Positions 4,809-38,303 of a stretch of DNA of 64,000 bases are shown here, piece after piece. The position numbers and the translations under genes were made by a program. The stretch is from a virus: IMG/VR virus record IMGVR_UViG_3300021541_000005. One strand, 5' to 3'. Below the pieces are notes generated by a model. That model was not told the DNA's origin. It was given only the letters and a program-made list of their open reading frames with translations, and ran no database searches. Position 1 is the first letter of the stretch; the number at the start of each line of letters is the position of its first letter.

Positions 4809-5840
4809 ATGAGTTGTAGAGTATTTGGTTTAGAACCAGAAGCTGCCTATGGTGAGGAAGTAGACAAAGATGATTTTCACTTACTTTTTGACCATGATGT
4901 AGACAGCATGGATTTTAAACTCAATGACGAACCGGTAACCAAAAGTTTCGGTTCAAGAATGAATCAAAAAGCAAGAGCTGGAGTAATCAAACCAACAGGT
5001 AGTATAGAAACTTCAGCAAACCTCCAAATATTAGGAGCTTACTTTTACGGATTCTTAGATAATTATAAGTTCACAGCAGGCCAAAATGGTAAAAACACCC
5101 ATGAGTTCTGGGGTGGTGAATCTAAATTATTAAAAAGTTTCAGAGGAAAAGCAGTTAACGACGATTTAATTTTCTACTTAATGGGTTTAATCGTCGATTC
5201 AATGAAACTCGAAGTATCTTCAGAAGACATGACTCTTGGAACTGACTTCATTTATAAAACAGAATTCTCTCAAATTTTAGCCGGTGAAAACGATTACGAA
5301 AGAGCCGAAGAACTAGAAGATGATTTATTCATAATGTTTTACGATGTCATGTTAAAACTCAATGGTAATGACCCTGCCGGCGTGCAGACAAGTTTTACCT
5401 TCGAAGGAAGTAACAATCATGACGTTGACAAAACAATAGGCTTTGGTTACAGACATCCACAGGGACAAGCAAAAGCAGGAAAAAGAGAAAACAGTATCAG
5501 CATTGTAACTACACTTACTCAAGAAACTGTAAGAGCAATATTAGATGCAAGATACGGTGATGTAGACCTTCTTGAACCTGCAAAATGTAAAATATTACAG
5601 GTCCCATTACAAATTGATGTTGAATTATGTGAATATCCTGGCCTTGGATTAACTATTTTATTCCCTAAATGTACTCTCTTAGCTGAATTCGACAGTAGTG
5701 GTATTGATGATGTGGAAGCAACATTAAATATGGCTACATTAGGTTCTGAAGAGGTTACATTAGCCGATGGAACTACTAAGAAAACAGATATGTATGTTAA
5801 ATTAGTCAATAAACAACCTAAGATAGCTCCCAGCATCTGA
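4809..5840 (+). CDS. Major tail (tube) protein
   Basis: 343 aa; N-terminal FG---E--YG motif; two-domain tube pattern; sits before chaperone and tape measure genes. Confidence 0.78.
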   Translation: MSCRVFGLEPEAAYGEEVDKDDFHLLFDHDVDSMDFKLNDEPVTKSFGSRMNQKARAGVIKPTGSIETSANLQILGAYFYGFLDNYKFTAGQNGKNTHEFWGGESKLLKSFRGKAVNDDLIFYLMGLIVDSMKLEVSSEDMTLGTDFIYKTEFSQILAGENDYERAEELEDDLFIMFYDVMLKLNGNDPAGVQTSFTFEGSNNHDVDKTIGFGYRHPQGQAKAGKRENSISIVTTLTQETVRAILDARYGDVDLLEPAKCKILQVPLQIDVELCEYPGLGLTILFPKCTLLAEFDSSGIDDVEATLNMATLGSEEVTLADGTTKKTDMYVKLVNKQPKIAPSI

Positions 5841-6090
5841 GGTGAATCCTGAAACTATTGATGATTTAGCAATAAGCGTAACTGATGGAACAAATCCTGT
5901 AAGTCAAGTTGAAGTTGCAATAGGAGAAATCACAGGCACTACTGGTAGTCAAGGTGGATGTACCTTGCATGATGTTCCTGTAGGCACGGTTACTGTAACA
6001 GCAACTAAAACCGGTTACGTAACTTACAGTCAGGAAGTAACAATTACTTCTAGCACTGAAACTTTAGATATTACTTTAGAGCCTCAATAA
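5830..6090 (+). CDS. Ig-like (carboxypeptidase-regulatory/PEGA-like) domain, probably a +1 frameshift extension of the tail tube protein
   Basis: VTDGT-PV--V-V-IG---GTT---G---L--VP-G--TVTATKTGY pattern; +1 frame opens only after TAG at 5824-5826; CCC-A at 5829-5832; no clear independent RBS. Confidence 0.65.
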   Translation, partial: PASEVNPETIDDLAISVTDGTNPVSQVEVAIGEITGTTGSQGGCTLHDVPVGTVTVTATKTGYVTYSQEVTITSSTETLDITLEPQ

Positions 6091-6157: not shown

Positions 6158-6601
6158 ATGGAGGCATTTAAAATGGCAATATTAAAAAAATCACAAATTT
6201 TACAAGGTATCAACGACCCTAAAAAAATACGCATTGAAGCATTAGATGGTGAACTCTGGTTAAGACCATTATCTAATTCAGAGTTAGATGAACTTGATAA
6301 AATCGAAGCTAAAGGAATGGAATCCTACGAAACCAATAGTAAATCTCGTGGTAGAATACAAGGGGAAACCGTTGCCAAAGGAAAAATAAACGTTCATTTA
6401 GCAACTGTTAATGGTGCAAAAGCACGTGATCGTAAAATAGAAATGAGTCTTGACAATCCTAAAAATGCGGATGATCCATGGACTGAAGAGGACATTGGAA
6501 AATTACCGCGTGATGCAGTAAATGAAATCGTTGATGCAATTAATGAATTATCTGGCCTTGAGGTTACAAAAGGAGATATAGATAAATTTCCTGAAGAGTG
6601 A
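6158..6601 (+). CDS. Tail assembly chaperone (start probably ATG 6173)
   Basis: Lies between tube and tape measure genes; LRPLSNSELDEL motif; GGAGG RBS at 6160. Confidence 0.72.
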   Translation: MEAFKMAILKKSQILQGINDPKKIRIEALDGELWLRPLSNSELDELDKIEAKGMESYETNSKSRGRIQGETVAKGKINVHLATVNGAKARDRKIEMSLDNPKNADDPWTEEDIGKLPRDAVNEIVDAINELSGLEVTKGDIDKFPEE

Positions 6602-6758: not shown

Positions 6759-9700
6759 ATGGTTTCTGAAAATATTGTTAAAATTATATTAAAAATGGAA
6801 GACCAAGCCACCCAAATGGCTCAAAAAGCAGATCAAGCTATTAGTAAATTAGGTAATACAGCACAAACCTCAAATCAAAAAGCATCACAATCTGCACAAC
6901 AGTTGACTCAAAAATATGAAAGTACTAATGATAGTATTAGGCGAGTGGGTCAGGCTGTTGAAAAAGTTGGTCAAAATGGTGCTAAATCATTTAATAATAT
7001 GGGTGAGGCTACTCAAAAAGCTGTTATTAACTTTAATAGGTTAGATGAACAGTCCCAAAATGTTATTCGCCATATGGGTAATTTAGATGATGAAAGTAGA
7101 CAAACATTCCTTGGAATGTATAGTTATGCTCAGGATGCTATATCTAAATTTGATGCTTTACAAAATGAAACTAGAACTTGGGGCACAACTTTTGATTATA
7201 CTAGAAGTAAAATGCAGCTAATGGGTACTAATGTTGACTCATTAAAAGGTAAAATACAAGTTGTAGGTTCCAGTATTACAACTCATTTAGGTAATAAATG
7301 GGATACTATCAAATCAAAAGTAACTGTTTTTGGAAATTATATCACAAGCCATTTGTCTAGTGCATTATCTACTGTTAGAAGTAAAATTCAAAGTTTAGGT
7401 GATGCTTTTACTGGTATTGGTGGGGTAATCTCAACAGTATTTGGTGGGATTGGTTTAAAAGCAATGACAGATATGACAATAGGCGCATCAATTAACAGAG
7501 ATAGGATTAAATCATTATCTTTTGCAATGTTGGGTTATGGAGAGTCATTTGAATCTTTTAGCAAAGGAATATGGAAACAAATGGACTCTATGACAAATGC
7601 TAGTTTAGTGTCTTTGGATCAATTATCTCAAGCAGCATCTGTTGTAAAAATGAGCACTAATGCATCAAAAGAACAAATGAAAGAATTATTGCCTGTATTA
7701 AATGATATAGGTCAAAGAGCCATATTGATGGGTAAATCTGGTGATGAGGCCATGGGACTTATGCAGGCAGCAGGTAAAGGTCTCAACGGCGAATTTGAAA
7801 TGCTCAGAGAAAACTTTGGTATCACAAAAGAAAAACTTGAAAATGCCGGATGGAATGGTAGTGCAGAAGATATTGATGGTTATACTCAAGCATTAAAAAA
7901 GTGTTTAGCAGAAAGTGGTGACGTCAATGGTATGATGGATACTACTTCTGGGAAAATTACACGATTACAGAAAATGTGGAATGTTTCAGCTAGAAGTTTA
8001 GGTGATCAATTTAAACCAGCTCTAGATCAAGCACTAAATTCTCTACTCAAATTTCTTGATGCAGATAATAATGGAGAAATAGATAAACAGGCTCAAGGAT
8101 GGGTTCAATGTGCTGTCGGTGCTATGACAGCAGCAAGTGCTTTTGCAACATTAGCTCCATCAATCGCTCCAGCGTTACAAGTAATGGATATGTTTTTCAG
8201 TAAAGGTAGGGCAGTATTAACATTTTTAGGTTTACTTGAAGCTGAGGAGGGTGCTTTAACAGCTTCTACTTTAGCGAATACTATAGCTGAGAAAGCAAAT
8301 GCTATTGCAAAAGCAGCAAAAGGCGTTACAACAGCTGAGTTAACTGCTGAAGAGGTGGCTCTTGGTGCTGCTGAAGCAGGTTTAACTGCTGAAGAAATTG
8401 CTGCTGCGGCTGCCCATGCAGGAAGTGCTGTTGCTATGACTGCTGAAGGTGCTGCTGCTGTAACTGCTGCTGGTGGAACAACTACTTTAACTGGTGCTTT
8501 ATGGGGAATGACTACTGCATTATTGTCTAACCCTATTACATGGATTGTTGTAGCATTAGTTGCTTTGGCTGTTGCTGTTTATGAAGTAGGTAAAGCATTT
8601 GGATGGTGGAAAGATATTCCAACATTACTTGCAGCGGTTTGGTCAGGAATACAAAGGATGTGGAATGCATTTATTAATCATCCTGATGTTAAAGCAGTGA
8701 TTGGAGTTTTAGTTACTGCTTGGAATAGTCTTGTTTCTGCTATAGGATGGGTAATAAGTAAAGTTGAAGAGTTCTTTGGTATTCATATTAATGGGGAATT
8801 TGATGTTGTTCATGCTATTATCGAAGGAATTGGCGTTGCATGGCAAGTAATAACTATGCCTATCCGTACTGTAATTAGCATTATACAATTTTTAATACCT
8901 GTGTTTCAATCTGTTGCTTCAGCAGTGCAGACTGCTCAAAGTAAATTTGGTGCTTTCGGAGGATTTTTAGCTACTATGGCCTCTCCAATAATCTTTGTAT
9001 GGGAATTATTAAGAAAAATTGTATGTATATTGCTCGGTTGTAGTCCAGGTATTGTTCCAGCATTACAAAGAACTTGGGAAGTATTTCAGGAAGTATTCAA
9101 TGCTATTGCAGGATTTATTGGTGGTATTATTTCACCTATTGTGGAATCTATTAGGCCTTTAATTGATATTTTTGTGGAAATAGTAACGTATCTTGTTGAA
9201 ATGTTTATGCCTGCATGGGATTTACTCAGTAATATATTATTGGTAATCTGGAATGCAGTATCTCAGCTTATTAATATTTTCCAGGCATTTCTTAGTGGTC
9301 AAATTACTTTACCTCAAATGTTGAATATGATCTGGAATTTGATTTTGACTGCATATATGACAATTTTAACAATGATTATTAATTTTGTCTTCCAATGGGC
9401 AGGTCAAATTGTAAGTGCAGCAATTAATGCTGCTTCAGGTTTTGTTAATGGTATTATTACTTATATTAGTGGTTTACCTGGCAGATTCTTTAGTTATTTG
9501 GCTCAAACTACTAGTAATATTATTAATGCTGGTGCTCAATGGGTTAATACTGCTAGGCAAAAAGCTAGTGAAATGGTTAACAGTGCTTCAACTACTGTAC
9601 AACAATTACCCGGTAAAATTTATACGGAGTTTACTAAGGTTCCTGATCGTATACGTGAAGCTATACCTCAGGCTATAGCTGCTGCATTAAACTTTGGTAA

Positions 9701-11480
9701 AGAAATTATTAATGGTGTACTCAACGCTATGGGTATACATTCACCAGGTATTATTCAAAATAGTATTACTGATGAATTCAAGAACTCTGTTCAAAAGATT
9801 AAGGATGCTATTAAGCCGGCTGGTGAGTATGCAAGGCAAGTTGGTGCAGAGATAGTTGATAAATTTGGTGAACCGAAATTATCATTGGATACTGATGATT
9901 TAATGCCTTATTATGATTTGGATGAAAATCCGTTAGAAAATGTTGATTTAGCCAGTATGGATTTATCTAGTGTGTCTGGTGGTTTGGATTCTGCAATGGG
10001 TATGACTGATGATACTAATGTTATGATTGGTGAATCTTATGATGCATTAGCAACAATGATGATGACTACTTTGCAGAATATGGTTTTACAGGATCAATTT
10101 GCTTATGGTCAAATTCAGTCTAATGATTTAGCTACTTTCCAGAATATTAGTACTGGTTTGAACTTGAATTTGTTGTCTATGAGTAATAATCTTCGTACTC
10201 AGTTAAATCTTATGTTATTAACTCATCGTACTGCTATGACTAGTGCTACTAATACTACTCGTCAGCAATTGGCGTTAATGTTGAATGAAACAATGAAAGT
10301 CACCAGTGAGATGAGGTCTGCATGGGCGGTAATGGCAGACAGTATAATAAGTGCTGCTGCAAGGATTAAAAATGAAGCTACTGCTTACTTTGACCAGTTA
10401 TCTTCTACGATTGGTACTTTTTACAGGAAATTGCAGAATCCATCACAGTGGGCTGGTGGTGATTCTACTGGATCACCTTCTACTATAAGGCGTGTTGGTC
10501 GTGACCCTGCGGTTATGACTCGTATCACTCGTGGTGTGGCTAATAGTTTAAGACGTGATAATCAATTGCCTTACACTATTACTGCGGTTAAAGCGATGGA
10601 TAATGGATTGGTTAGTCCTGTAACCTTGGAGTATATGGATAAAACTGCATCTGATAATTTAAATCTTATTGATTTGATTCAACGTGGTGCCTGTCCTAAT
10701 TGTTTTGCTGGTGGATGGGATGCTGTTGCAGATCCAAACATTGCTTATATTAAGCAGACTGCTCGTGAGTGGCAAATGAAAGGGCCTGCTGTGCATACTG
10801 GTGTTGGTGATATTGACACTGGTTTATCTTTCCGTGTTAAAGACTTTGAAGGTGGAACACCGCATATTAGTTGGGAATCCTTTGTTAGGATTGCTACGGC
10901 GATTGCTAGTGCAATACCTTATGAATTGTACTACAATAGTGATGCTCATGGCTCTTGGCAAAATGCTATTGCTGCGGGTTCATGGAATTGTTATGATGGT
11001 GCTTCTGCAATGGTGGCTCTTGCAAATACCTGTGGTTATGGTGGTTATGTTGATTGTGGTTTGAATTGGGGTGGTTTTGGTCATTGTGCTGCTATTATTA
11101 ATGGTTATACTTTCGATACAACTGCTTTAAGGCAACGTGGTGGTTGGACTGCTGGTCCATGCAGTTATAGTCATCCGGCACCATCTGCTGGAGGTCCAAT
11201 TAATGTTCATATTCCTGGAGGCAGATCTGCTCCACGTACACATTCCAATCCATTAGAAGGATTATTTGACAATAATAATTCTAGGGGTAATGTTGAAGAG
11301 GTTAAATTAACATTAGAACATAAAGTGGATGTTACTGTTGATGGTAATGTTGAAAATATTGGTACTGATGCATTAATCAAAGAATTAACTGAGTCAGTCA
11401 CTGATAAAAGATTGATTGACCGTATTGCTGATGCATTAATTAAAAGGGATAAACGTATAGCTCGTATGGGAGGTGCATAA
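6759..11480 (+). CDS. Tail tape measure protein with C-terminal transglutaminase-like (Cys-His-Asp) peptidase domain
   Basis: 1573 aa; tape-measure N-domain, Ala-rich and Trp-periodic amphipathic repeats; WNCYDG, GHCAA and FDTT motifs near the C-terminus. Confidence 0.92.
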   Translation: MVSENIVKIILKMEDQATQMAQKADQAISKLGNTAQTSNQKASQSAQQLTQKYESTNDSIRRVGQAVEKVGQNGAKSFNNMGEATQKAVINFNRLDEQSQNVIRHMGNLDDESRQTFLGMYSYAQDAISKFDALQNETRTWGTTFDYTRSKMQLMGTNVDSLKGKIQVVGSSITTHLGNKWDTIKSKVTVFGNYITSHLSSALSTVRSKIQSLGDAFTGIGGVISTVFGGIGLKAMTDMTIGASINRDRIKSLSFAMLGYGESFESFSKGIWKQMDSMTNASLVSLDQLSQAASVVKMSTNASKEQMKELLPVLNDIGQRAILMGKSGDEAMGLMQAAGKGLNGEFEMLRENFGITKEKLENAGWNGSAEDIDGYTQALKKCLAESGDVNGMMDTTSGKITRLQKMWNVSARSLGDQFKPALDQALNSLLKFLDADNNGEIDKQAQGWVQCAVGAMTAASAFATLAPSIAPALQVMDMFFSKGRAVLTFLGLLEAEEGALTASTLANTIAEKANAIAKAAKGVTTAELTAEEVALGAAEAGLTAEEIAAAAAHAGSAVAMTAEGAAAVTAAGGTTTLTGALWGMTTALLSNPITWIVVALVALAVAVYEVGKAFGWWKDIPTLLAAVWSGIQRMWNAFINHPDVKAVIGVLVTAWNSLVSAIGWVISKVEEFFGIHINGEFDVVHAIIEGIGVAWQVITMPIRTVISIIQFLIPVFQSVASAVQTAQSKFGAFGGFLATMASPIIFVWELLRKIVCILLGCSPGIVPALQRTWEVFQEVFNAIAGFIGGIISPIVESIRPLIDIFVEIVTYLVEMFMPAWDLLSNILLVIWNAVSQLINIFQAFLSGQITLPQMLNMIWNLILTAYMTILTMIINFVFQWAGQIVSAAINAASGFVNGIITYISGLPGRFFSYLAQTTSNIINAGAQWVNTARQKASEMVNSASTTVQQLPGKIYTEFTKVPDRIREAIPQAIAAALNFGKEIINGVLNAMGIHSPGIIQNSITDEFKNSVQKIKDAIKPAGEYARQVGAEIVDKFGEPKLSLDTDDLMPYYDLDENPLENVDLASMDLSSVSGGLDSAMGMTDDTNVMIGESYDALATMMMTTLQNMVLQDQFAYGQIQSNDLATFQNISTGLNLNLLSMSNNLRTQLNLMLLTHRTAMTSATNTTRQQLALMLNETMKVTSEMRSAWAVMADSIISAAARIKNEATAYFDQLSSTIGTFYRKLQNPSQWAGGDSTGSPSTIRRVGRDPAVMTRITRGVANSLRRDNQLPYTITAVKAMDNGLVSPVTLEYMDKTASDNLNLIDLIQRGACPNCFAGGWDAVADPNIAYIKQTAREWQMKGPAVHTGVGDIDTGLSFRVKDFEGGTPHISWESFVRIATAIASAIPYELYYNSDAHGSWQNAIAAGSWNCYDGASAMVALANTCGYGGYVDCGLNWGGFGHCAAIINGYTFDTTALRQRGGWTAGPCSYSHPAPSAGGPINVHIPGGRSAPRTHSNPLEGLFDNNNSRGNVEEVKLTLEHKVDVTVDGNVENIGTDALIKELTESVTDKRLIDRIADALIKRDKRIARMGGA

Positions 11481-11483
11481 ATA

Positions 11484-12263
11484 ATGGAGAAAATAAGTGT
11501 TAACCCTGGTAGATGCCGTGTTCATGGTAATATTATAGGTTACAAATATGGTTATTTGGAAACTGATATTGGTTTTCAAAGCCATAAATGTGAAGTGGCA
11601 TTGAATCCCACACAATCAAAAGGATATGAGGATTTTGATGTCTATTCTTTTGCTTTAACAAAAAATTCGAACTTAGTTAATAAGTTTAATGATAGTATTG
11701 CTTACTGTAGTGAAACAGATATTGATGCTATAGGTGGTTTTCTTTATGTTTGTGAGCATTTTGATAGTACATTTGATCCAATAGAATCTATTGCGAATAT
11801 TCAAAATTTCACTAATGGTTATAAATTGGTGGTGAAAAATGATTATCTAGTTAATGGGGTGGACAATACCTCTCCATTTTACCTTTTAATCCATCAAAAC
11901 GGTACAGGTGTAGCCATACCATCTGGTACAACAAGGATATTGTTCAGTACTACTTATGAAGCCTCACAACATATCAGTAGCATTAAAGTAGGCTTTGTTT
12001 ATTTCGATAAAAACCATAATTATATTTCCAGTAAAGAAATAACTGATATTGCAAATGTCGCAACGGGCAATCGTGGACGTTGTAATGTACAAACAACTAA
12101 CATACCATCCAATGCTAAATATGTGAGTGTTGAATTCCATTTCAAAAATGGTGTAGGACAATACACAAATACCTCTGGAATATTGAAAAACGATTACTTT
12201 AGTATGGAATTAAACTGTTTACTCTTTAACCAAACTTATGGAGGTTTTGTTAAAAATGGCTAG
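11484..12263 (+). CDS. Minor tail protein, possibly with a carbohydrate-binding jelly-roll domain
   Basis: Position after tape measure; GFVYFDKNHNYIS...IPSNAKYVSVEF motif resembles CBM-like domains. Confidence 0.45.
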   Translation: MEKISVNPGRCRVHGNIIGYKYGYLETDIGFQSHKCEVALNPTQSKGYEDFDVYSFALTKNSNLVNKFNDSIAYCSETDIDAIGGFLYVCEHFDSTFDPIESIANIQNFTNGYKLVVKNDYLVNGVDNTSPFYLLIHQNGTGVAIPSGTTRILFSTTYEASQHISSIKVGFVYFDKNHNYISSKEITDIANVATGNRGRCNVQTTNIPSNAKYVSVEFHFKNGVGQYTNTSGILKNDYFSMELNCLLFNQTYGGFVKNG

Positions 12264-15078
12264 AGTAACATTATATCCAGTATGGGAAAATAACACTGGA
12301 ATGCGTAATGTTAATGGTAATACTGGTATCTATCGTGAGATGGAGGATATTCAGGGATTACATGATACAACCATTTATGGGCATTGGGGTAATGAAGACC
12401 CTGGAGCAGGTTATATGTATGCCGTCGCTTCGGTTAATGGTGGTAAATTTAAGCCTTCACAGATTGAAGTCACTAATTTCCATGTACTCGATAATATACC
12501 AGCTAATGCTCGTATTAAAAGCATTCAGGTTGAGTATGAGTATGCGAAATTTGCGTATCCTAATATGGGTCATGGATCATTCGGCCAACCTGTGATTAGC
12601 ATACCTACATTAGGTTTGTTTGCACCGGGTAATGCTCCACCTAAAGATGTTCTCACAGCATATAATGTTAAATTTGATGATTTAAAATTTACCGCAGAGG
12701 ATTTGGCGGATGTCAAGGTTACTTTTGATTTACCAATGAACACGTCAGCGAATCCTGCTTATGTGAAAATGAACTATCTTAGATTAAATATTGAATATAT
12801 AGTCCCGAATTATGTTCCACAGGTTAGTTTCGGTTTGAATAGTATTGAGTATGGGATGGAAGCTCCTGTTACGGTTGAAGTAATTGATACTAATAATGCT
12901 ATATCTGTTGCTGATGTGGATTGTACTGTAATAGTCACTCCTGGATTAAGGCTTGTGGATGGTAGTGTTAATTGCAGTGGAACATTTGACCCTGCTAATC
13001 ATGTATGGCATGCAAAAACCAATAATGGTAAAGCAACATTAACATTTAAGGTCACACCTGCGGATCCGAGTGTTCAAGGTTTGAATAATGTTAATGCTTA
13101 TGTTTTCATGGATTCATCAACTATTCATTCATCTGTAGAATCATTGTATATTACACCGCAAAAAGCTTATCTTTTGGAATGCAGTGTATCTGAAAATGCT
13201 ATAAAACAAAGTCTAAACAGTAGGCATTATACATTATTCACTTTAACAGTGCAGAATAATGCCCGTACACCTTTAGACGTTCATTTAGATTTTGATAAAC
13301 TGGAATATGAAGGCACCCTTGAAGGTTATGATGAAGATACAAAAACTTTAACAATCACTGAATGGGATGGAAATAATTATTTCGATGTTCAATTAAGGGT
13401 GTATAGTACTGTTTTAGAGGATGCTCAAATCATATGTTACAGTTCAGCATGGACTGGAGTAACAAAGATAAAAGTGAATGTAAATGAAGAGTTTGACTAT
13501 GAAGAGTATTATACAGAGTTAAATGCACCATTATTTACTTTAGAAAATATGCAAGGTACAAACGGTCAAGAATATGTTTTCGGCTGTCTTTGTAGAGTTA
13601 CAGGAACAAATAATATCATTAAAGGCATGAAAAATGCACGTGCTTCTGTATTAAATAATGGGGAAAAATTCACATCTAAAGTGTCACAAATAGGTTCATG
13701 GCAGTTATTGGCTGTTAAATTTACTTATAATGAATCTAAAAAGTTGTCTTTCCGTTTTTATGGTAATTATATTGAGGTTGATCAGGGTAAAATTGAGTTT
13801 GGTAATCTTTTTGTGATTCATGCTGATTATTATTCAGGTTATGAATATCCTGCTTTGGCTTTTGAAGAGTTACATTCTCTTATTACAAATGAGGATTATA
13901 CTAATCTTTTATTAGAACCTCCAGAAAAGAATCCGTCAAGCAGACATTATTTTGATTTAATTGACTGGATGGGTTTGGAGGATAATCAATATTTGATACC
14001 TCATGGTTTGGAAGTTACTGGAGATATTTCTGCTGAAGAAACTATAGGCATTACATTAGGTTTTGGCCACAAAGGTATAGATGAATTTGACTTTATTTCC
14101 GATAGTTTAAACATTGATGAGAATACTCAAACATTCAAGTTCGGAGGTAAATTTGAAACCTTGGGTTTGAGTTTTACAGACATCTCCACTTTATTAAAAG
14201 ACATTGCTTTCTATCTACAAATTGATGACATGTATGATAATCAAACACCCATCAACGTTCAAATGAAAAACGTAAAAATAACCCTCTACTATAGCCTGAA
14301 CAGTGATTGCTGGGAATTCTTTATCAATGGTGTTTCATCAAAACACTACTTATTAGACCTTCAAGCAGATAGTGAAATACCAAGAGGTGCTAAATACGAT
14401 GTTAATAAATTCAAAGTTGACGGTGCTGATGGTGAATATCCAAACAGAATTAATCTCAAAGGAAACAAATTAAAAATAAAATTTGGGACCTGTGAATGTG
14501 GAACTATTGAAGACTTAACATATCTATTAGAACATGTTGTAGAATGGTTATATCCTGAAAGAGATAGTCTAGATAACCCTTTATTGAAAACAATAAGTTT
14601 CTTTTACGCTCCTGATGTAGGTTATGATTATTACATCGAAGATACAATGGATGCTGAAGCTGTAGACGGTGCTTATGAATGTGAAGTAGAACTAATTGTA
14701 CCTTCAGGACTGGCCCGCAATCTTCATGAAACAGAAAGTTCTGCAACAGGCCATACAGGCCACATGGGTAAAGTAAAACCAGTAATATTATTCTACATCT
14801 TAAGCCATGACAGTGAAATAATTGTAATTGAAAGCAAAACCGGTCAAAAATTAACAGTAACTGGAGAATTCATTGATAATTTACCATTAAACACATTGTT
14901 AAAACTTGACTGTGGAAATCGTAAACTTTACTACGAATCCTATGGTGAATGGTTTGATATAGATCCAAATTGCATTACACTAGACAGTGATTTCTTTACC
15001 TTAGCAGGTTATTTTGATTTTTCAACTAGTGTCAACTGCAAAATATCTGAAGTAAAATACTATGAATTAAAAGGGTGA
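12238..15078 (+). CDS. Enlarged distal tail (Dit-like) protein with adhesin-like N-terminal domains (DUF11-like); start probably 12256
   Basis: C-terminal about 250 aa resembles siphovirus Dit (ISFFYAPDVGYDYYI, VELIVPSGLA, LKLDCGNRKLY); internal VTPGLRLV...GTFDP-NHVW DUF11-like segment. Confidence 0.62.
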   Translation: MEVLLKMARVTLYPVWENNTGMRNVNGNTGIYREMEDIQGLHDTTIYGHWGNEDPGAGYMYAVASVNGGKFKPSQIEVTNFHVLDNIPANARIKSIQVEYEYAKFAYPNMGHGSFGQPVISIPTLGLFAPGNAPPKDVLTAYNVKFDDLKFTAEDLADVKVTFDLPMNTSANPAYVKMNYLRLNIEYIVPNYVPQVSFGLNSIEYGMEAPVTVEVIDTNNAISVADVDCTVIVTPGLRLVDGSVNCSGTFDPANHVWHAKTNNGKATLTFKVTPADPSVQGLNNVNAYVFMDSSTIHSSVESLYITPQKAYLLECSVSENAIKQSLNSRHYTLFTLTVQNNARTPLDVHLDFDKLEYEGTLEGYDEDTKTLTITEWDGNNYFDVQLRVYSTVLEDAQIICYSSAWTGVTKIKVNVNEEFDYEEYYTELNAPLFTLENMQGTNGQEYVFGCLCRVTGTNNIIKGMKNARASVLNNGEKFTSKVSQIGSWQLLAVKFTYNESKKLSFRFYGNYIEVDQGKIEFGNLFVIHADYYSGYEYPALAFEELHSLITNEDYTNLLLEPPEKNPSSRHYFDLIDWMGLEDNQYLIPHGLEVTGDISAEETIGITLGFGHKGIDEFDFISDSLNIDENTQTFKFGGKFETLGLSFTDISTLLKDIAFYLQIDDMYDNQTPINVQMKNVKITLYYSLNSDCWEFFINGVSSKHYLLDLQADSEIPRGAKYDVNKFKVDGADGEYPNRINLKGNKLKIKFGTCECGTIEDLTYLLEHVVEWLYPERDSLDNPLLKTISFFYAPDVGYDYYIEDTMDAEAVDGAYECEVELIVPSGLARNLHETESSATGHTGHMGKVKPVILFYILSHDSEIIVIESKTGQKLTVTGEFIDNLPLNTLLKLDCGNRKLYYESYGEWFDIDPNCITLDSDFFTLAGYFDFSTSVNCKISEVKYYELKG

Positions 15079-15082
15079 TTAG

Positions 15083-17599
15083 ATGATTGTAATTTTAGAT
15101 CATGATGAAAACATCCTTGAATTCATGGATGATGCAGATGCCAGTGTTGAAATCACAGACACTTACGGAGGATATAATTCTTTAGATTTAGATTGTGAAT
15201 TAACTGATGTAAAAAAAGACCAATACCTCTTTAAACAAGGAAACAAACTGTTGATAAATAATATTCTTTTTGTAATTAATACTGAGGTTGAAGTGGACTA
15301 TGTGGATAATTTAATACATTTAGAAGCTGAAGAACTGGTCTATGAGTTAAATAATTGTGAACCATTCTATATTAATGATCCAATTTTTAAACAATATGTT
15401 TCAGGAAAAACAATTAAAATATCTTTCAACATGTTAAACTTACTATTCAAAGGATTTTACACTGTTGATGCTACAGATTTAAATGAAATAAGCTATGATA
15501 AGAAGTATGTTACTGTACAGGGAACAATTACAAAGTATAATCTTCTTAAAGAGATTGAAACGGCCACAGGATTAATGTTTAAATACCATTATGCTTTAGA
15601 TGGAAATAAAGTCATTAAAAAGGTGAGTCTGCTTAAACCTGAAAACTATGGAGTAACACATTCACAGCTCCTGGAACGTGTAACTGTAGGTGAAAATACA
15701 AATAAACTGGAATATAGTAGTGATGAAACCAAAAACGCCCTTGGAATAATGCCTATTATCAAATCAGAAAACAATAGTAATGTTGATTATAATAAAATTT
15801 TACAACAATTTTATAATTTAGACATTAACAACGAAAGAATAATGCCTTATTATGTAAATTACAGTGTTTTAGAAGAAAACTTCCTAAGTGCTGCTAAAAC
15901 GCTACATGAAAAGATTACTACTTTTGGCATTATCCCAGATACTATTCCTATGATTTTTGATGATGATGAAATAATACCTGTAGGAATGAGCCAATTTGTC
16001 GATATGGCAACAAAATATTTGATAAACTCGGATGAAGTTATACATCTAATTATTGTAGAACCTCCAAGCATTACACATGGTGACCGCTTAAACTGTGTTT
16101 TTGAAGAAACAGAGATTAACAACTTAGCCTACACTGTCCAAGATTATATCGCAAAAACAGGTCATATTAACACTACTATTTCAACAGGCCATGGGCGATT
16201 AAGTTTCCAATGGTTAATCTACATATTTGCAGAATATTTAACTACAAAAAAGAAAGTAGTCTGTAAATCTGAAGATTATCCTAATTTAAATAAACTTCTA
16301 CCTTCTGAAGTACAATATAATGTACGTCGCATTGTTGACACTGATAATTATGAGTATATGCCTTACGTTTACACCCAAAATACCAGTGAATCAAATAACA
16401 TTCCGTATCAAACACCAATGAATCCATTACCTGGGAAAAACATGTATGACTTAAATAATTACATTAGTGAATCATATCCACAAATGGTCATAACAAAAAC
16501 AGCAGGTGTAGAAAACATCACTATAACAATATCTAAACAAAATATTAGTCAAAACACACCAGAATCTTTCGTAATAGGATTCCGTGATGTGAATCTAATA
16601 CAGGATGGTACGGATATTACAATAGATTTCAATAAACAGGAAATCGTTTTCATGAAATTCTTTGAATGGATTGAAGAAAAAGAAGTTGAAGTTACAGAAT
16701 CCATACCTGCCGATGATGTTATAACAGTCAATATGATGCCTTCCTGTGGTTGCTGCGGTTACCCAAAAACACCATACAAACGCTTCACGAAAACATGGAA
16801 AAATTACTGTCCAAACTGTAAAAAATCAGGTACTTTAACAGATAATCCTAAAGGCGTTTATGAAGGTGAAATAACTTGCAGTATGAAAAAAGGCGGATGT
16901 GACGCAGACTACTGCGGATACTGCGGCGGTGACAAATGGGGTGGTGGAAAATGTGCTAGAGTAAAATTAACTCCTGCTGAAGCAACCACCGAAGAAACAC
17001 GCACCGAAACGATACAGGAAGTACATCAAGAATATAAAGAAGTCACAGCTAATGATGACAATAACGGAGAGGATGAAACTAAAATAAGATTAAATCAAAT
17101 ACTAACAGAAAACTCAAAATTAGACTCATGGCATGGAGATATAAGTATAAAAATCGAAGGAGCAACATTAAAAAGTCTAAAATCAGATTCCGTTAAATTA
17201 TATGAATTAGCACCATTCCCTTATGTAAAAGAGAAAGGTGACATGTTTATTCATGCTCCTATAACCTCAGCAGATTTCTACTATACTCACATGACAAATG
17301 ACAATCCAAAATTAGAACCCTTTGAAACTTCAGAACAATCCATCGAGGAAGTTTTAATCGGCTGCTGGAAAAAATTAAATGGTTCTGGTGATAATACGAA
17401 TTGGTTAGAAAAATCAGAGGATATTGAAGTAGATTTAACTGAAGAAAACTTGGATTTAGAAGCTGGAGACTTTGTATATATCAAACTACCTGATAGTATG
17501 GTGTTCAAGGCACAAATTACAGAGAAAAAATATGATCCAAAAATCAAATCAGATTCCAAATTAAAAATTGGAAACGTTTCCAGGGAGGCAATTGTATGA
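15083..17599 (+). CDS. Baseplate hub (Tal-like) protein with inserted pseudomurein-binding-like repeats and a Cys-rich domain
   Basis: MIVILDHDENILEF N-terminus and L--GD-V-I-----V----I----YD C-terminus typical of Tal; PMBR-like segments at about 15860-16245; Cys cluster at about 16735-16970. Confidence 0.75.
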   Translation: MIVILDHDENILEFMDDADASVEITDTYGGYNSLDLDCELTDVKKDQYLFKQGNKLLINNILFVINTEVEVDYVDNLIHLEAEELVYELNNCEPFYINDPIFKQYVSGKTIKISFNMLNLLFKGFYTVDATDLNEISYDKKYVTVQGTITKYNLLKEIETATGLMFKYHYALDGNKVIKKVSLLKPENYGVTHSQLLERVTVGENTNKLEYSSDETKNALGIMPIIKSENNSNVDYNKILQQFYNLDINNERIMPYYVNYSVLEENFLSAAKTLHEKITTFGIIPDTIPMIFDDDEIIPVGMSQFVDMATKYLINSDEVIHLIIVEPPSITHGDRLNCVFEETEINNLAYTVQDYIAKTGHINTTISTGHGRLSFQWLIYIFAEYLTTKKKVVCKSEDYPNLNKLLPSEVQYNVRRIVDTDNYEYMPYVYTQNTSESNNIPYQTPMNPLPGKNMYDLNNYISESYPQMVITKTAGVENITITISKQNISQNTPESFVIGFRDVNLIQDGTDITIDFNKQEIVFMKFFEWIEEKEVEVTESIPADDVITVNMMPSCGCCGYPKTPYKRFTKTWKNYCPNCKKSGTLTDNPKGVYEGEITCSMKKGGCDADYCGYCGGDKWGGGKCARVKLTPAEATTEETRTETIQEVHQEYKEVTANDDNNGEDETKIRLNQILTENSKLDSWHGDISIKIEGATLKSLKSDSVKLYELAPFPYVKEKGDMFIHAPITSADFYYTHMTNDNPKLEPFETSEQSIEEVLIGCWKKLNGSGDNTNWLEKSEDIEVDLTEENLDLEAGDFVYIKLPDSMVFKAQITEKKYDPKIKSDSKLKIGNVSREAIV

Positions 17600-20500
17600 C
17601 TAAATTAACAAACGCTGAAAAAGATAAACTAGATAATACCTGCGGAAACCTAAGAGTAACAAAGTTAGGAACGCATGTAAAATCATTAGAAGACTTTGTG
17701 AACGAAGGAGCACTCGCTACAAGAGCAAATGATGTAACTTCTGCAATCAATGAATTATATGGGATGATTGCGAACAATGAATGTGCAGACATTCAAATTC
17801 CACCACCAGGATTCTTTACTCTTTTTGGTAATGATGAGGATGGTAAGTTATATGTGTATTATAATGATGAAGATCATCCGCCGGTATTCCGTCATGTGGA
17901 AGAGCCTGGGGAACTGGAAGGAACATTATACTTGTATATTGCAGATCCTGAAGGTGAAAATCATTTTGAAATGGAAATCGGCCATTATATTGCAGTAAAA
18001 CATCTGGATAATTATTACACAAAAGCAGAGATTGATGCAGGTTACGCCATAAAAAACCATGCAAGCACAGCTAATACCTATGGTCTTGGTTCAACTTCTA
18101 AATATGGGCATGTAAAAACAATAAATGGTTTAACTCAAGCAAGCCATGCAGATGGTCTTGCATTATCAGCATATCAAGGGAAAGTTTTGAAAACTGCTGT
18201 TGATGAAAAAGTAGTGACTGTTGAAAAGCAATCTTCAGCTGAACAGGGTTATGCTGCTACATATGTTGTAAAACAGAATGGGTCACAGGTTGGAGTTAAA
18301 ATTAATATTCCTAAAGACTTTCTTGTGAAATCTACTTCAGTTAAAACGTGTACTACTGCAAATCAACCTGTAAATGGGTATGAAGTCGGGGACATTTATA
18401 TTGATTGGGTTGTTAATTCAAAAGATAATACTGCAACAGATGAACATCTCTATTTGCGTGCAAAAGACATAGGATCTTATCCTCCCGATGAAGTCACATT
18501 AACAATTGAAAATAATCAATTTAAAATCAAAAATGGTGGTGTTGGTTCTACTCAGCTTGCTAAAGACAGTGTAATCACGGATAAAATCAAAGATTCTAAT
18601 GTCACTACTGCAAAAATTAAAGATGGAAATGTTACAACAGTAAAAATCAAAGATGATAATGTAACTACTCCAAAAATTAAAGATTCTAATATTACTACTG
18701 ATAAAATTGCTGATGGTGCAGTTACAAATGATAAAGTAACTTCAATTACTAAAAATAAGATAAGTGATTTTAGTCACGCTCATGGAAACTTACAAAACGA
18801 CGGTAAAGTAGGAACAAGTAATAATGAAAATAAAAATGTTGTAACTGATGGAAATGGAAAAATTACAACTGAAGCAAAACCAACAGTTCCAACAGCTAAC
18901 AGTACTGCTTCTAATATTAAGATGGATGGTACTCAAAGTGCAGGTTCATTATCTACTTTTGCTAAAGCCGACCATGTCCACCCAACTGACACTAGTAGAG
19001 CATCTACTGACGTTGCTACTCAGTCTGCTAATGGTTTAATGAGTAGTTCAGATAAAACCAAATTAGATGGTATTGCAACTGGGGAAAATAAAACAACTAT
19101 AGATTCTGCATTAAGCACAACTTCTACAAACCCTGTTCAAAATAAAGTCATCAAGGCAAAAATAGACACTTTAGCAACAAAAGAAGAAGTTGATGATATT
19201 ATAGCAGGAGATATTGATTTAACAGGATATGTTAAAGATACAGATTCAAGATTGGCTGATGATAGAATTCCCAAAGTTATTGAAATTGATGGTACAGTAA
19301 ATGAACCTTATGATTTGGATTTAGTATATGGCACTGGTTTCTACATTGGTAATCGTGGTGGAAACAAAACATCTTTACATACTCCAGATGATACTTATGG
19401 TTCAAGATATGTGTTACTTGTGCAGGCATTTGGTTTAAATACATATATTAAACAAGTGTTTACATTTCTTAACAATGGAAAAACTTATACAAGATTCAAA
19501 ACAACTGGAAACTGGAGTTCATGGACTGAAATAAGTTATAATGGACATACTCATCATGACACAGATATTGATTGGGAAGGTGTCGCATTAGCAAATCAAG
19601 TAAGTCCATTAGATATGGCGATGTTCGAAGAATTAAGTGCAAATCGTCTGGCATTCTTAAGTGGAGATAATATTATTTTTGAATATTCAACAGATGGAGG
19701 TAGTACATGGACAGAAGGATATAATGATGCCGATGGAAAAACAAAAAAATTAAAACTTGTTACTACATCAGAACGTTTCAGTGGAGGTAATGGTGCTACA
19801 AAATCTGTGAATAATCAAGCAAGAATCACATTAAAAGCAGGCGAAGCAAATGTAGCAAGTAAAATTTACATGTACACAAGAAAACTTATGATTTACTTCT
19901 CAACAGCAGGAAGTAGGGGCTGTAAATGTAAAGTAGAAACTTCAACATACGGTACTCCTAGTGCTTGGACAACTATAGGTACTTACAATATTGATGGATA
20001 TTCCGGATGGAATAGTATACCATTAGCACTCACACTGGGAGGATTTGCAAGTCAGACTAATGGTACAAGAATACAAAATATTAGACTTACATTTAGTTGT
20101 ACCACTATAGGCAATTATAATTTTGAAATACAAAAAATAAGACTATTTGGTGAGACATGTTGGACATCTCCATCCACTATGGCGACTAATGGACATATGT
20201 ATACTTTTGATGAAAATGGAGATGTTACATTCCCCGCAAAAATTATTAAATCTGGAGGAACATCCGCACAATTCTTAAAAGCTAATGGTGATATCGATTC
20301 AACCACCTATGTAAGTGGAGCAGGAACTGGATTAACCAAAGATGGGGTGAATTTAAAACATAGCAATTCTGTTACTGCTGATACAACAGGTAATTTTAAA
20401 AAGTTGACATATGATTCTCAAGGACATATAACTGGAACAGTAAATGTACAGGCATCTGATTTGCCAACCCATTCACATGGAGCATCTGATTTGCCGACAT

Positions 20501-22191: not shown

Positions 22192-22299
22192 ATGAAGAAA
22201 TCTGATCCTCATAAAGGTTGTTGTTATAGGCGAACTTGTAATAAAGACTTGAAAAAATGTTGCTATTTATATAAAAAGGTGAAAAAATGGGAATTTTAG
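22192..22299 (+). CDS. Small basic Cys-rich ORF (35 aa), not in the ORF track
   Basis: MKKSDPHKGCCYRRTCNKDLKKCCYLYKKVKKWEF fills the gap and overlaps the endolysin start; weak RBS. Confidence 0.35.
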   Translation: MKKSDPHKGCCYRRTCNKDLKKCCYLYKKVKKWEF

Positions 22300-23417
22300 A
22301 TTGGATAAAGAACATTTTAGGGAATAATAAAAAGAATGCTAGATTAATCACGAAAGATTTAATCAAAACGTATGGTGAAAAAGACCAGTTAGAAGTGGGC
22401 CTATATGAAGGAAACTCACCTTTACCTGGTAAAATGATTACTTTTAATGTGAATGGTATGGATTATTATCGTAAGACTGATGATGATGGTATTGCTAGGT
22501 TAAATATTAATTTGCCTCCTGGTGAATATACTCCTTTAATTAGTTTTAAGGATGATGATTATAATCTTGATACTGAATTTACAACCGTGATTGTACGTTC
22601 TAAAACACGTATGGAAGGCACTGATATTAATATGACTTATCGTGATGGTACAATGTATCAATGTGCTGTGTATGATGATTTTGGCCGTGTTCTTGGAGAT
22701 GTTGATTTAACAATCAATGGGGTTACTTATCATAGAACCGCTGATAATGAGGGTTTGTATAAGTTAAATATTAATTTGAATCCTGGAAATTATACTATTA
22801 CTGCTAAATATCTTGGAGATATGTTTCATTTGCCTTCAGAGATTAAAAATACTATCCATATTAATGAAGCCCCTAAAGTGGAGCCTAAGGTAGAGTCTAA
22901 AGTAGAGCAAAATTATACTCTTAATCCATATATTACTCAACAGGGATCAGGTAAGCTTGGTCAAGTATGTGGATATTCCTGCGGTCCGCATAGTTTGATG
23001 CAATGTATCTATAGGCTGACTGGTATTGAATTGTCTGAATCTACATTAATGAGTGTGTGTGGGACTACATCAGGAGGCACAGATCATCAGGGTTTGGCGA
23101 CAGGTTTAGCATGGTTTAACCGGCAATACGGGTACAACCTGAAAATGACTTGGAAAAACAAAAGTGAGTTGTCATGGGAAGAAATACAGCAAGCCATAAA
23201 TAATGGAGCATTATTCTTCCATTTGTTATATCGCAATCAATGGGGTCATTATGAGGTTGCACAAAACAGTAAAAGTCCTATGTCCATTTTGAACAGCCTT
23301 GGAAGTAGATGTGGCAATGGGTATTGTGGATATATTGAAAGTAGATCAAGAGCTACTCAACAATCCTACATAAATGGTATAAGTCAGAAAAGTGTTTGTA
23401 TAATTAGTAGAGGGTGA
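22287..23417 (+). CDS. Putative endolysin: two Ig-like adhesin domains plus a C39-like cysteine peptidase (PeiR-like pseudomurein endoisopeptidase candidate)
   Basis: Two ..RTxDxxG.A/Y.LNINL.PG.YT repeats; Q-x5-CGPHS nucleophile, WGHYEV His and ILNSL motifs; follows the tail genes. Confidence 0.8.
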   Translation: MGILDWIKNILGNNKKNARLITKDLIKTYGEKDQLEVGLYEGNSPLPGKMITFNVNGMDYYRKTDDDGIARLNINLPPGEYTPLISFKDDDYNLDTEFTTVIVRSKTRMEGTDINMTYRDGTMYQCAVYDDFGRVLGDVDLTINGVTYHRTADNEGLYKLNINLNPGNYTITAKYLGDMFHLPSEIKNTIHINEAPKVEPKVESKVEQNYTLNPYITQQGSGKLGQVCGYSCGPHSLMQCIYRLTGIELSESTLMSVCGTTSGGTDHQGLATGLAWFNRQYGYNLKMTWKNKSELSWEEIQQAINNGALFFHLLYRNQWGHYEVAQNSKSPMSILNSLGSRCGNGYCGYIESRSRATQQSYINGISQKSVCIISRG

Positions 23418-24064: not shown

Positions 24065-25270
24065 ATGAAAAATATGAGACCTACAAATGAAATCCTAAAT
24101 GAAATATTCAGAGAACGTAACTCATCAATTAACACACAAAAATCATATGCAAGAAGTGTCAATCAATTCGAGTTATACTTCCAACAACATTTAGGAGAAA
24201 TATTAATCATTGCAGAAACAGAAGAAGATCAAGGAATACCCTGGAGAAAATCGACACTAAGACAATATCTAATAGAATTCAGAAGCTACCTATATGATAA
24301 ATACAAATCCAAGACAGCTAAATTATATCTTACATTAATAATATCTATTTTTAGGCATTTTGAATTTGTTATACCAAAATTACCACGTTTTAGTGAGGAC
24401 ATTGAAGTCATACCAATATTACCTGAAGACATTCCAGACAGGGAGATGCTTCAGAAATGTCTTGAAATAGCACCTAAGATTGTTGAAACATTCGCATTAT
24501 TCACTTCCAGTTCAGGAATGAGCAGGAGAGATGCATTGAATTTGAAAGTGAAAGATTATTTGGAAGCTACTAAAGAATATCATCATAGCAATAATGTTCA
24601 GGAAGCTATTAAAGAAATGAATTGGTCTAATGTTGATATTGTTCCTTGTTTTAGGGATTTAACACGTCAAAAAACGGGTTTACCATATTATACATTTTGC
24701 AGTCCAGAAGCTGCTAAAAGTTTGAACAATTATTTACTTAGTAGAAGAGTTTTAATCTATGCTGGTGATGGTGAGGTAATTGGATCAAGAGATGTCACGC
24801 CTGAAGATGATCTCTTTGATGTGTCATATCAATGGATAGGTGATTTGTTTGATGAAGTAAATCAAAAGTTGGGGCTCGGTAAAGCTGGTAGATATAACAG
24901 GTTTACTATTCATATGATGCGTCGTTATCATGCTACTCAGTTGCATGCTGCGGGAATGAGTGAAGATAAGATAAATCTATTGCAAGGTAGAACTCCGAAA
25001 AGTGTGATTCATGAGTCATATATTCGTGTAAAAGCAGAGGATTTGAAAGAAGAGTATATTCAAGCATTGCCATATATAGTGGTTACTGAGATTGATAAGG
25101 TGCGTACAAAGTTAGATGTTGTTACTGAAAAGAAAGAAGTGTTGGAAAATGAGAATATTGTTTTGAAAAATGAGTTATCTGATATTAAGTCTAGGCAGGA
25201 TAATCTTGAGAAATTAATCCTGGAAAATATTAGTGAGGAGCGTTTGGGTAAACTTAACAAACTAATATAA
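24065..25270 (+). CDS. int: Tyrosine recombinase (integrase)
   Basis: N-terminal SAM-like domain; SSGMSRRDALNL box I, RQKT lysine, HMMRRYHAT (HxxR), LQGR and ESY catalytic Tyr; C-terminal coiled coil. Confidence 0.9.
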   Translation: MKNMRPTNEILNEIFRERNSSINTQKSYARSVNQFELYFQQHLGEILIIAETEEDQGIPWRKSTLRQYLIEFRSYLYDKYKSKTAKLYLTLIISIFRHFEFVIPKLPRFSEDIEVIPILPEDIPDREMLQKCLEIAPKIVETFALFTSSSGMSRRDALNLKVKDYLEATKEYHHSNNVQEAIKEMNWSNVDIVPCFRDLTRQKTGLPYYTFCSPEAAKSLNNYLLSRRVLIYAGDGEVIGSRDVTPEDDLFDVSYQWIGDLFDEVNQKLGLGKAGRYNRFTIHMMRRYHATQLHAAGMSEDKINLLQGRTPKSVIHESYIRVKAEDLKEEYIQALPYIVVTEIDKVRTKLDVVTEKKEVLENENIVLKNELSDIKSRQDNLEKLILENISEERLGKLNKLI

Positions 25271-36695: not shown

Positions 36696-38303
36696 ATGGT
36701 TAAATCAGAATCATGGATAGTAACAGTAGACGAAACTACTGGTGACGTTAAAGATGTTATAAGCGAAATTGAAATGGGCAAATATGCTATAAAAGCAGAT
36801 GTTGACCCTACTACGGGGAGTAAACAAACACCTAGTGATCATTATGCTCATGGAATAACAGTTATTGACCCGAAATATAATCCTTATAATTTAATTGAAT
36901 TATTAGATTTGTATAGTTATCATGCTGATTGTGTTGATGCTGTTGCAACAGACGCCAGTGGTGTAGATTATACATTGAAACCTATTGAAGGAAAAGATGA
37001 AGTTGAAAGTGAGAAAATAAGATTCACAGAAATATTAGATAATAGTAAACCTTCAATTAATATTCACATTCACCGTATGATTTATGACCGTAGAAGCATA
37101 GGCTATGGTGCAATGGAAGTAATAAGAGAATCCACTAGTAAATCACCTATAACACGTTTAAAACACATACCATCACACACATTACGCCGTCATACAGACA
37201 TGAAAAGAGTATTATACACAGATGACACAGGAAAAAAAGTCTGGTATGTGCTATATGGTAAAAATTACGATGATGATGGAAATCCAGTTGATGTTCATAT
37301 GAAGACAGGTGAATTCCATCCATATAATAGTTTAAGCATGGAAGAAAAAGCTAATGAATTATTATGGACTATGGAGTATGCTCCAGGAACAAATTATTAT
37401 GGTAGACCACCAATTATAGCTACATTACCATCCATACAATCTGATTTAGCTGCGGTACGTTATAATACTACTTTTTTCCAGAATTATGGTATGCCAGCAT
37501 TCGCAGTCACAGTAACTGGAGATTTCCAAGATTACGAGGAAGAGAAATATATAAAAGACGATGATGGACGTGAAATTCTCAATCCCGATTATGATGAAAA
37601 ACAAACTTTAAGATACCAAATATCACAGCAAGTAAAAGAAGTAATACGCAATCCACATTCAGCTATTTGTATTACAGTACCATCTGAAGGAGTAGACGGA
37701 GATGTAGAAATTAAAATCACTCAATTAAGTGTTGACGTTAAAGAAGGCTCTTTCAGAATGATGAAAAAAGACATACGTGATGAAGTAATACACGCTCACC
37801 AGGTTGACCCTTCACGTTTAGGTATTTTTGACAGTGGCAATTTAAATGGTACTAATTCTGAAGTCACTAAAGCATCCTATAAGTATGGTACTATTGCACC
37901 AATTAAAACTGAAGTTGAATCTATGATAAATCAGATAGCAGCTGAATTAAAAGTGACTAGTTGGAAATTTGTTATTAATGATGTGGATCCAATTGACCAT
38001 AGCCCACGTAAAGATTTAGCTGATTTTTTATTTGCACGTGGTGCAATGACTATTATGGATCTGATTAATAATTTTGGTGATGAATTCGGTTTGGCTGTTG
38101 ATGACCCAAATGACCCTTATTTGAACAGTAGATTCATTAATAATATCCCGTTGGAGCAAGTTTTCAATCAATCAGAACAGAATAGTTACTTGGAAGAAAA
38201 GAGTATTTTGAAGGCTTTGGATGGTAATCTCTGGCAAGACTCTGAAGAGGATGATGATTTTTTAGGAGTTAACAATGACACAGGAATTGGAGAAACAGAT
38301 TAA
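36696..38303 (+). CDS. Portal protein
   Basis: Follows terL; YYGRPP, FFQNYGMP and AHQVDP-RLG motifs of HK97/PBSX-type portals. Confidence 0.92.
   Translation: MVKSESWIVTVDETTGDVKDVISEIEMGKYAIKADVDPTTGSKQTPSDHYAHGITVIDPKYNPYNLIELLDLYSYHADCVDAVATDASGVDYTLKPIEGKDEVESEKIRFTEILDNSKPSINIHIHRMIYDRRSIGYGAMEVIRESTSKSPITRLKHIPSHTLRRHTDMKRVLYTDDTGKKVWYVLYGKNYDDDGNPVDVHMKTGEFHPYNSLSMEEKANELLWTMEYAPGTNYYGRPPIIATLPSIQSDLAAVRYNTTFFQNYGMPAFAVTVTGDFQDYEEEKYIKDDDGREILNPDYDEKQTLRYQISQQVKEVIRNPHSAICITVPSEGVDGDVEIKITQLSVDVKEGSFRMMKKDIRDEVIHAHQVDPSRLGIFDSGNLNGTNSEVTKASYKYGTIAPIKTEVESMINQIAAELKVTSWKFVINDVDPIDHSPRKDLADFLFARGAMTIMDLINNFGDEFGLAVDDPNDPYLNSRFINNIPLEQVFNQSEQNSYLEEKSILKALDGNLWQDSEEDDDFLGVNNDTGIGETD

Follow-up and report, generated by a model that had tools for sequence, protein, structure and literature searches.

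The 64,000-nucleotide stretch of DNA analysed here (the window) is IMG/VR virus record IMGVR_UViG_3300021541_000005, which holds the genome of a temperate Methanobrevibacter siphovirus. An open reading frame (ORF) at 6759-11480 encodes the tail tape measure protein (TMP), and close to the carboxyl terminus of this protein lies a module that is predicted to be a catalytically intact cysteine peptidase of the transglutaminase-like superfamily, with Cys1411, His1442, and Asp1453 as its triad. By analogy with lysins on the tape measures of bacteriophages, we propose that this module is probably a virion-borne pseudomurein peptidase, which would open the wall of the host locally at entry.

The original prediction had called the ORF a tape measure protein, and several lines of evidence agree with this. 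The ORF matched TMP families of PHROGs, including phrog_1272 (E 1.6e-36), phrog_58 (E 1.2e-28), phrog_5493, and others, and scored 815 bits against phrog_38386, an unannotated family that is cited for the TMP in the public record of vir249. The solved structure 6v8i, a TMP from phage 80alpha, was matched by a profile of the ORF and its relatives (E 9e-19). The product is very long and rich in helices, with several hydrophobic segments in a Kyte-Doolittle scan (19-residue window, mean > 1.8), and its gene sits between those for a tail assembly chaperone and a Dit-like protein. Because of the PHROG matches, the match to 6v8i, and this position, the ORF is identified as a tape measure protein gene.

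6759-11480, plus strand: TMP gene, P0002, 1573 amino acids; an identical copy lies at 49174-53895, where the window wraps onto itself.
8514-9395, plus strand: hydrophobic, membrane-span-like segments of the TMP by Kyte-Doolittle (residues ~586-615, 697-723, 743-762, and 860-879).
6158-6601, plus strand: tail assembly chaperone gene (phrog_344, E 2e-7), directly upstream of the TMP gene.
12238-15078, plus strand: gene for a Dit-like distal tail protein, with a weak match to the Dit family phrog_202 (E 9e-4) and the same position as the distal tail protein of vir075.

Translation of 10680-11170 on the plus strand, which is one frame of the ORF, yielded the motifs WNCYDGA, FGHCAA (within WGGFGHCAA), and YTFDTT, all within TMP residues ~1316-1470, with the codons for Cys, His, and Asp starting at 10989, 11082, and 11115, just as had been predicted. 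The prediction had further stated that the TMP ends in the peptidase. The domain does lie near the carboxyl terminus, but not at the very end, as about 100 residues follow it. Likewise, the CPNC motif said to precede the domain is present (codons from 10692), but it is not conserved among the homologues, which is why its reading as a hallmark of the family, for instance a site for a metal or a disulphide, was rejected. The parts of this region are as follows.

10692-10703, plus strand: CPNC motif, just upstream of the module; clade-specific, in the window and close relatives only.
10704-10865, plus strand: conserved N-terminal subdomain, residues ~1316-1369, with AGGW, IK.T...W, and FKV.DF (alignments A1-A4).
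10866-11168, plus strand: predicted transglutaminase-fold catalytic core, residues ~1370-1470 (AF2 model, Foldseek/VIA, and a weak Transglut_core match).
10920-10931, plus strand: Y-x-x-Y motif YELYYN, with Tyr1391 invariant in the alignment.
10986-10991, plus strand: Asn1410-Cys1411, with the predicted nucleophile Cys (codon TGT, 10989-10991); 131/131 representatives.
11082-11084, plus strand: His1442 (codon CAT), predicted general base; 131/131 representatives.
11115-11117, plus strand: Asp1453 (codon GAT), predicted third triad residue; 131/131 representatives.
11169-11477, plus strand: C-terminal tail after the module, ~103 amino acids, closing with a basic helix, which is conserved, and a terminal Gly-x.

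An exhaustive phmmer search with the 181-residue module against 1.84 billion protein cluster representatives (50% identity clusters, E <= 0.001) returned 208 proteins, nearly all of which are 1300-2400 amino acids long and carry the module 100-250 residues from the carboxyl terminus; the shorter ones may be fragments. When 131 representatives were aligned, mean column identity was 9%, and the only invariant columns were Tyr1391, Asn1410, Cys1411, His1442, and Asp1453. Invariance of the triad at such divergence is beyond chance and argues for catalysis. Conservation of the triad in homologous tape measures had been named beforehand as a point on which the prediction could fall; the triad was found in all representatives, and it is invariant as well in the TMPs of Methanobrevibacter smithii tailed virus 1 (MSTV1), Drs3, the Methanobacterium virus PhiF3, the M. 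gottschalkii virus vir075, and vir249. Within the N-terminal subdomain, which is modelled as one helix and a small beta sheet, W21, I32, V61, and F64 are nearly invariant in alignments A1-A4.

Some of the same residues align with those of enzymes that act on pseudomurein. Searching the Protein Data Bank (PDB) with a profile of the whole-length TMP (A1) gave results swamped by coiled-coil matches, so that a domain-only alignment of 13 IMG/VR loci (A2) was needed. With A2, the endolysins PeiP (E 0.0043) and PeiW (E 0.01) were the sole matches among 177,635 PDB sequences, in alignments spanning YxFYYN, NCxD, and GH; phmmer with the single domain found nothing in the PDB but a chance-level glucanase match. 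An hhalign comparison of A2 with four C71 catalytic domains (PeiP, PeiW, PhiF1, and MSTV1 Pei) reached 79% and E 1.6e-5, with Cys and His alone covered; a PeiP-based scan of IMG/VR had given near-identical psiM2-like loci only. Specifically, Asn1410-Cys1411 aligns with the NCTD motif and His1442 with the YGH motif of PeiP and PeiW, while YELYYN has counterparts in YKFYYN of Peptidase_C71 and YSFYYN of a group of host proteins described below. PeiW from prophage psiM100 and PeiP from phage psiM2 (MEROPS C71, PF12386, PDB 8jx4 and 8z4f) have a transglutaminase fold with Cys, His, and Asp in the same order as in the module, share with it a YxxYYN motif ~20 residues before NCxD and a GH on a strand, and are likewise encoded by viruses of pseudomurein-walled methanogens. 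They differ in being soluble egress endolysins of ~300 amino acids that carry pseudomurein-binding repeats (PMBR) at the N-terminus, whereas the module forms part of a structural protein of the virion and lacks a PMBR; moreover, His and Asp are 11 residues apart in the module versus ~24 in C71. PeiW and PeiP are hydrolases, and some Pei-like proteins of M. smithii also lack a PMBR (PMC2989375).

Closer relatives were found among proteins of the hosts themselves. Searching 301 Methanobacteriales genomes with A2 gave two tiers of matches. The first consisted of full-length matches (E 1e-30 to 1e-77) in frames of mostly 1200-1770 amino acids, with a few shorter or longer, which represent prophage TMPs in 27 of the 301 genomes. 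The second consisted of core-only matches of ~40-48 bits, several per genome, in 278 of the 301 genomes, most of which span only profile positions ~71-162. Of six second-tier proteins sampled, five combined PMBR and Transglut_core domains, and one had Transglut_core only. These six (loci L037-L042, in genomes G019, G004, G088, G142, G055, and G007) belong to sets of several paralogues per host genome. One of them, the 359-residue protein L040, passes the cut-offs of both Transglut_core and Peptidase_C71, and in terms of its sequence it bridges the two families. L040 is 31-34% identical to the TMP module over ~110 residues that include the full triad (hhalign 95.9%, E 5.8e-9; BLASTP E 4e-7), with its Asp in YTADAT aligned to Asp1453 in YTFDTT. 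More generally, the module scores higher against the host proteins with PMBR and Transglut_core than against PeiW and PeiP. These host proteins (PF09373 + PF01841) are thus its closest relatives outside TMPs and have the triad in common with it, but they are encoded by the cell, fused to PMBR or immunoglobulin-like (Ig-like) domains, without the context of a TMP, and mostly without the N-terminal subdomain of the module.

The known carriers of the module point to the same kind of wall. Using tblastn, the C-terminal 426 residues of the TMP were matched in the TMPs of MSTV1, vir075, vir249, PhiF3, and Drs3, all five of which infect Methanobacteriales; megablast of the 3' end of the TMP gene against a phage collection gave no match. 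Close relatives were named Methanobrevibacter millerae or Methanobrevibacter sp. and came from the ruminant gut. A strict-pattern locus search of genome contigs with A1 gave 4 loci, and among ten divergent matches looked up by cluster, one was named, as Methanobacterium paludis. Named carriers are restricted to viruses and proviruses of pseudomurein-walled Methanobacteriales, a restriction that rests on the named matches and on the exhaustive protein search, which carries no taxonomy; the "phylum" sample comprised almost the same genomes as the "order" sample and is thus no outgroup. As a separate observation, Drs3 (MH674343.1) encodes a PMBR protein at 12450-12819 in its tail module, downstream of the TMP gene, which suggests that Drs3 virions may bind pseudomurein directly.

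An AF2 model of the module, built from a 90-row alignment, had a mean pLDDT of 85.6, with the core above 90; it replaced a mediocre earlier model from 15 sequences (pLDDT 68). In this model, Cys1411 sits at the N-terminus of a helix (112-125), His1442 on a strand (141-148), and Asp1453 at the end of the next strand, which is the arrangement of transglutaminases and papain. Foldseek placed the transglutaminase (TGase) 4xz7, the putative cysteine protease 3isr, PeiP (8z4f), and PeiW (8jx4) at the top of its PDB matches, with a probability of ~1 for the first three and 0.97 for PeiW, at E-values of just 0.004-0.04. VIA-align against 48,161 chains ranked TglA (Z 9.3), LapG (8.9), PeiW (8.8), and PeiP (8.0) first, the four being effectively tied; PeiW superposed with a root-mean-square deviation of 2.4 Å over 98 of 148 residues. 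Almost all lower ranks were taken by other transglutaminase-fold proteins, among them CPR-C4 (Z 7.1). Together with the conserved triad, these matches agree with the transglutaminase-like Cys-His-Asp domain of the original prediction, and as far as modelling goes, the transglutaminase/papain-like fold of the module is secure.

LapG (4fgo), TglA (9crn), and CPR-C4 (7pjo) share the core fold with the module and count among its equal-best structural matches (Z 7.1-9.3), while no sequence-level match between them and it was found, and their known substrates are proteins or peptides rather than wall cross-bridges. That such protein-cutting enzymes are among the top ties would fit a protease for self-processing or assembly, which would trim its own TMP, for example by removing the tail of ~100 residues, or cut another tail protein, and have no role at the wall. 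TMP processing is known in bacteriophages, as gpH of phage lambda is trimmed. Moreover, the basic helix and terminal Gly-x are conserved behind the module in all of the 16 homologous TMP C-termini that were aligned; in the AF2 model, pLDDT is below 50 from domain residue 172 on, where this tail lies. We nevertheless consider self-processing unlikely. Outside TMPs, the module is closest in sequence to wall-associated PMBR proteins and to Pei enzymes, not to LapG-type proteases, the named carriers are confined to pseudomurein-walled hosts, and the genome already encodes a head protease, which belongs to another type than the module.

A different chemistry was considered as well. True TGases (4xz7, factor XIII, and TG2/3) are among the fold matches too, and a role in cross-linking or recycling pseudomurein has been postulated (PMC10117817) for the transglutaminase-like proteins of Methanobacteriales hosts, the closest relatives of the module. 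Both would be in line with a transamidase that forms an isopeptide bond, with which it could covalently attach the TMP, once ejected, or the tail tip to stem peptides of pseudomurein, or else cross-link proteins of the tail. The characterized phage members in these hosts, PeiW and PeiP, are hydrolases, however, cross-linking would leave the barrier to DNA entry in place, and no partner serving as acyl donor or acceptor is evident, which makes this alternative quite improbable.

The combination of a putatively wall-directed enzyme and a tape measure suggests a function during infection. The tail tube of long-tailed viruses is filled by the TMP, whose carboxyl terminus lies at the tail tip and which is expelled first on infection. 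On entry, the ejected TMP would deliver the module straight into the pseudomurein sacculus, where it would locally cleave a peptide or isopeptide bond of the cross-bridge. Through the resulting hole in the wall, the hydrophobic middle of the TMP could reach the membrane, after which the DNA would enter. There is precedent for this architecture in bacteriophages: siphovirus TMPs are ejected into the envelope, and those of T5 (Pb2), mycobacteriophage TM4, and the S. aureus phage phiIPLA35 carry murein-cleaving domains (PMC6116005). In each case, a wall-degrading domain is part of the TMP, presumably to be delivered by the tail tip at genome ejection. The bacteriophage domains have other folds (metallopeptidase, Rpf or lysozyme-like, and muramidase) and, as murein hydrolases, act on bacterial peptidoglycan, whereas the module is a predicted transglutaminase-fold cysteine peptidase of an archaeal virus with a pseudomurein-walled host. 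Its role at entry, with a place in the virion and hydrolysis of the wall, is proposed on the example of the lysins on the TMPs of T5 and TM4, and we also infer that its chemistry is hydrolysis and not transamidation, that pseudomurein is its substrate, and which bond it would cut.

Lysis of the cell at egress would be left to a separate, PeiR-like enzyme.

22287-23417, plus strand: gene for a candidate endolysin, 376 amino acids, between the fibre genes and the integrase gene (Big_3_5 Ig-like; PHROGs 6007 and 1519).

The product of this gene contains Ig-like domains and a C-terminal Cys-peptidase region (PeiR/C39-like) with GYSCGPHS...WGHYEV. Its matches to endolysin PHROGs are weak, and its match to Peptidase_C39_2 (E 0.007) is below the cut-off; the protein resembles PeiR-type enzymes reported for viruses of animal-gut methanogens. 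Given this weakly supported endolysin candidate, the TMP module might instead be a wall hydrolase used at egress, as a second endolysin that acts from within, or a domain without a remaining function. Both options appear very improbable. A module embedded in a structural protein of 1573 residues that is locked in the tail is unlikely to act as a soluble lysin, and decay is excluded by the presence of the triad in every one of the 131 representatives. In addition, MSTV1 encodes a Pei endolysin separately from its TMP module, as would fit if the two enzymes had different jobs.

Several observations weigh against the proposal that the module is an entry peptidase for pseudomurein. Its activity and its presence in virions are predictions, and the fold by itself leaves the substrate unfixed, with the protein-cleaving LapG and CPR-C4 among the structural ties. 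The links to PeiW and PeiP are weak (~20 bits; Foldseek E > 0.01), and the Peptidase_C71 model (PF12386) gave no match to the module at E <= 10, while PeiP, as a positive control, scored 318 bits. The match to Transglut_core (PF01841), at 17.2-17.4 bits (E 0.006), falls short of the 23-bit gathering cut-off. A Pfam search revealed no PMBR (PF09373) in the TMP, and what has been proposed for its host relatives is a transglutaminase activity that cross-links, not a hydrolase activity (PMC10117817). Finally, the distribution has two irregularities. The TMP of psiM2 (14685-18245, 1186 amino acids) gave no tblastn match to the module, which is thus common among viruses of pseudomurein-walled hosts, but not required by every one of them. 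Conversely, a TMP fragment containing the module with an intact triad was found on a 3070-bp contig (L036, PWRF01000004.1; GC content 39.6%) of a metagenome-assembled genome from sediment labelled "Bacteroidales bacterium"; this is either a case of mis-binning or a carrier outside the methanogens, and the contig is too short for host assignment.

The family assignment can be narrowed further with these results. Matches to Transglut_core at E <= 1 were found in 11 of 13 homologues (best 4.1e-5), and membership of Peptidase_C71 was rejected, since its model does not match the module. The comparison with PeiW and PeiP made in the original prediction holds to the extent that these two are the only solved relatives detectable by sequence; it does not extend to membership of PF12386, and the host proteins with PMBR and Transglut_core are closer. 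A score below the Transglut_core cut-off, the lack of a C71 match, and wall-associated proteins as nearest relatives together indicate that the module probably constitutes a separate, TMP-specific family of the transglutaminase-like superfamily, to which host wall-associated proteins are nearest and Pei endolysins more distant. A more far-reaching version of this would be that the module represents a distinct pseudomurein-active family, derived from the PMBR-transglutaminases with which hosts remodel their walls, and with a bond specificity or chemistry other than that of PeiW and PeiP. Such an enzyme could, for example, cleave a cross-link such as gamma-Glu-Ala or Lys-Glu, or anchor the ejected TMP to the wall through a transient covalent acyl-enzyme link. 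We regard this version as doubtful. If true, the module would be the first entry enzyme to be defined for any virus whose archaeal host has a wall, and it would represent a new class of reagent for lysing methanogens.

In a full-text literature search, the scope of which excluded most subscription journals, no description of this domain was found. The paper describing MSTV1 labels the protein as a tape measure only (PMC11375127), and both this paper and one on the gut archaeal virome mention Pei enzymes only as endolysins. A 2024 review of entry and egress of archaeal viruses discusses pseudomurein under egress only (PMC10791045). While TMP lysins and Pei-type enzymes are each known, an archaeal TMP with a transglutaminase-fold module that would target pseudomurein appears to be undescribed. 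The literature searched does not deal with the way in which viruses of methanogens with pseudomurein walls get through the wall at entry; our results suggest that this virus, like many bacteriophages, probably carries a wall-opening tool of its own into infection. Such a lysin is expected by analogy with the TMPs of bacteriophages, and is as such interesting rather than surprising. The module is a concrete candidate for expression, for which Cys1411Ala would be a clear negative control, and two of its carriers are cultivable, MSTV1 with M. smithii and Drs3 with M. formicicum. It also links viral enzymes to a large, uncharacterised set of host PMBR-transglutaminases thought to build or recycle pseudomurein, and it could join the few known methanogen-lytic enzymes, which are of interest for the mitigation of rumen methane.

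The window itself consists of a 42,415-bp genome (GC content 33.8%) wrapped onto itself: positions 1-21585 are identical to 42416-64000, with 0 mismatches, so that all features of 1-21585 occur twice. With these identical ends and an integrase gene, it looks like the complete genome of a temperate virus, either circular or circularly permuted.

24065-25270: integrase gene, downstream of the candidate endolysin gene.

On the upstream side of the TMP gene, the head is represented by genes for its protease and a major capsid-like protein, along with genes for adaptor and neck proteins, and the tail by those for the tube protein and the assembly chaperone. On the downstream side are genes for the Dit-like protein, for large tail proteins, and for fibre proteins containing collagen and fibre repeats, as well as the candidate endolysin and integrase genes.

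Further observations concern two other structural genes. Behind the gene for the tail tube protein (4809-5840) comes a second ORF in the +1 frame, which is open from 5827 and listed as 5842-6090. The tube protein matches positions 1-342 of PHROG profile 35581, and the product of the second ORF matches positions 378-427 of the same profile. This arrangement suggests that a frameshift of +1 (or -2) is programmed near GCT_CCC_AGC_ATC_TGA, by which some of the tube subunits may acquire an Ig-like domain. The minor head protein (38275-41700) is very long, at 1141 amino acids, with a Mu F-like domain at residues 168-282; the ~850 residues after this domain gave a weak match to DUF4329 only.

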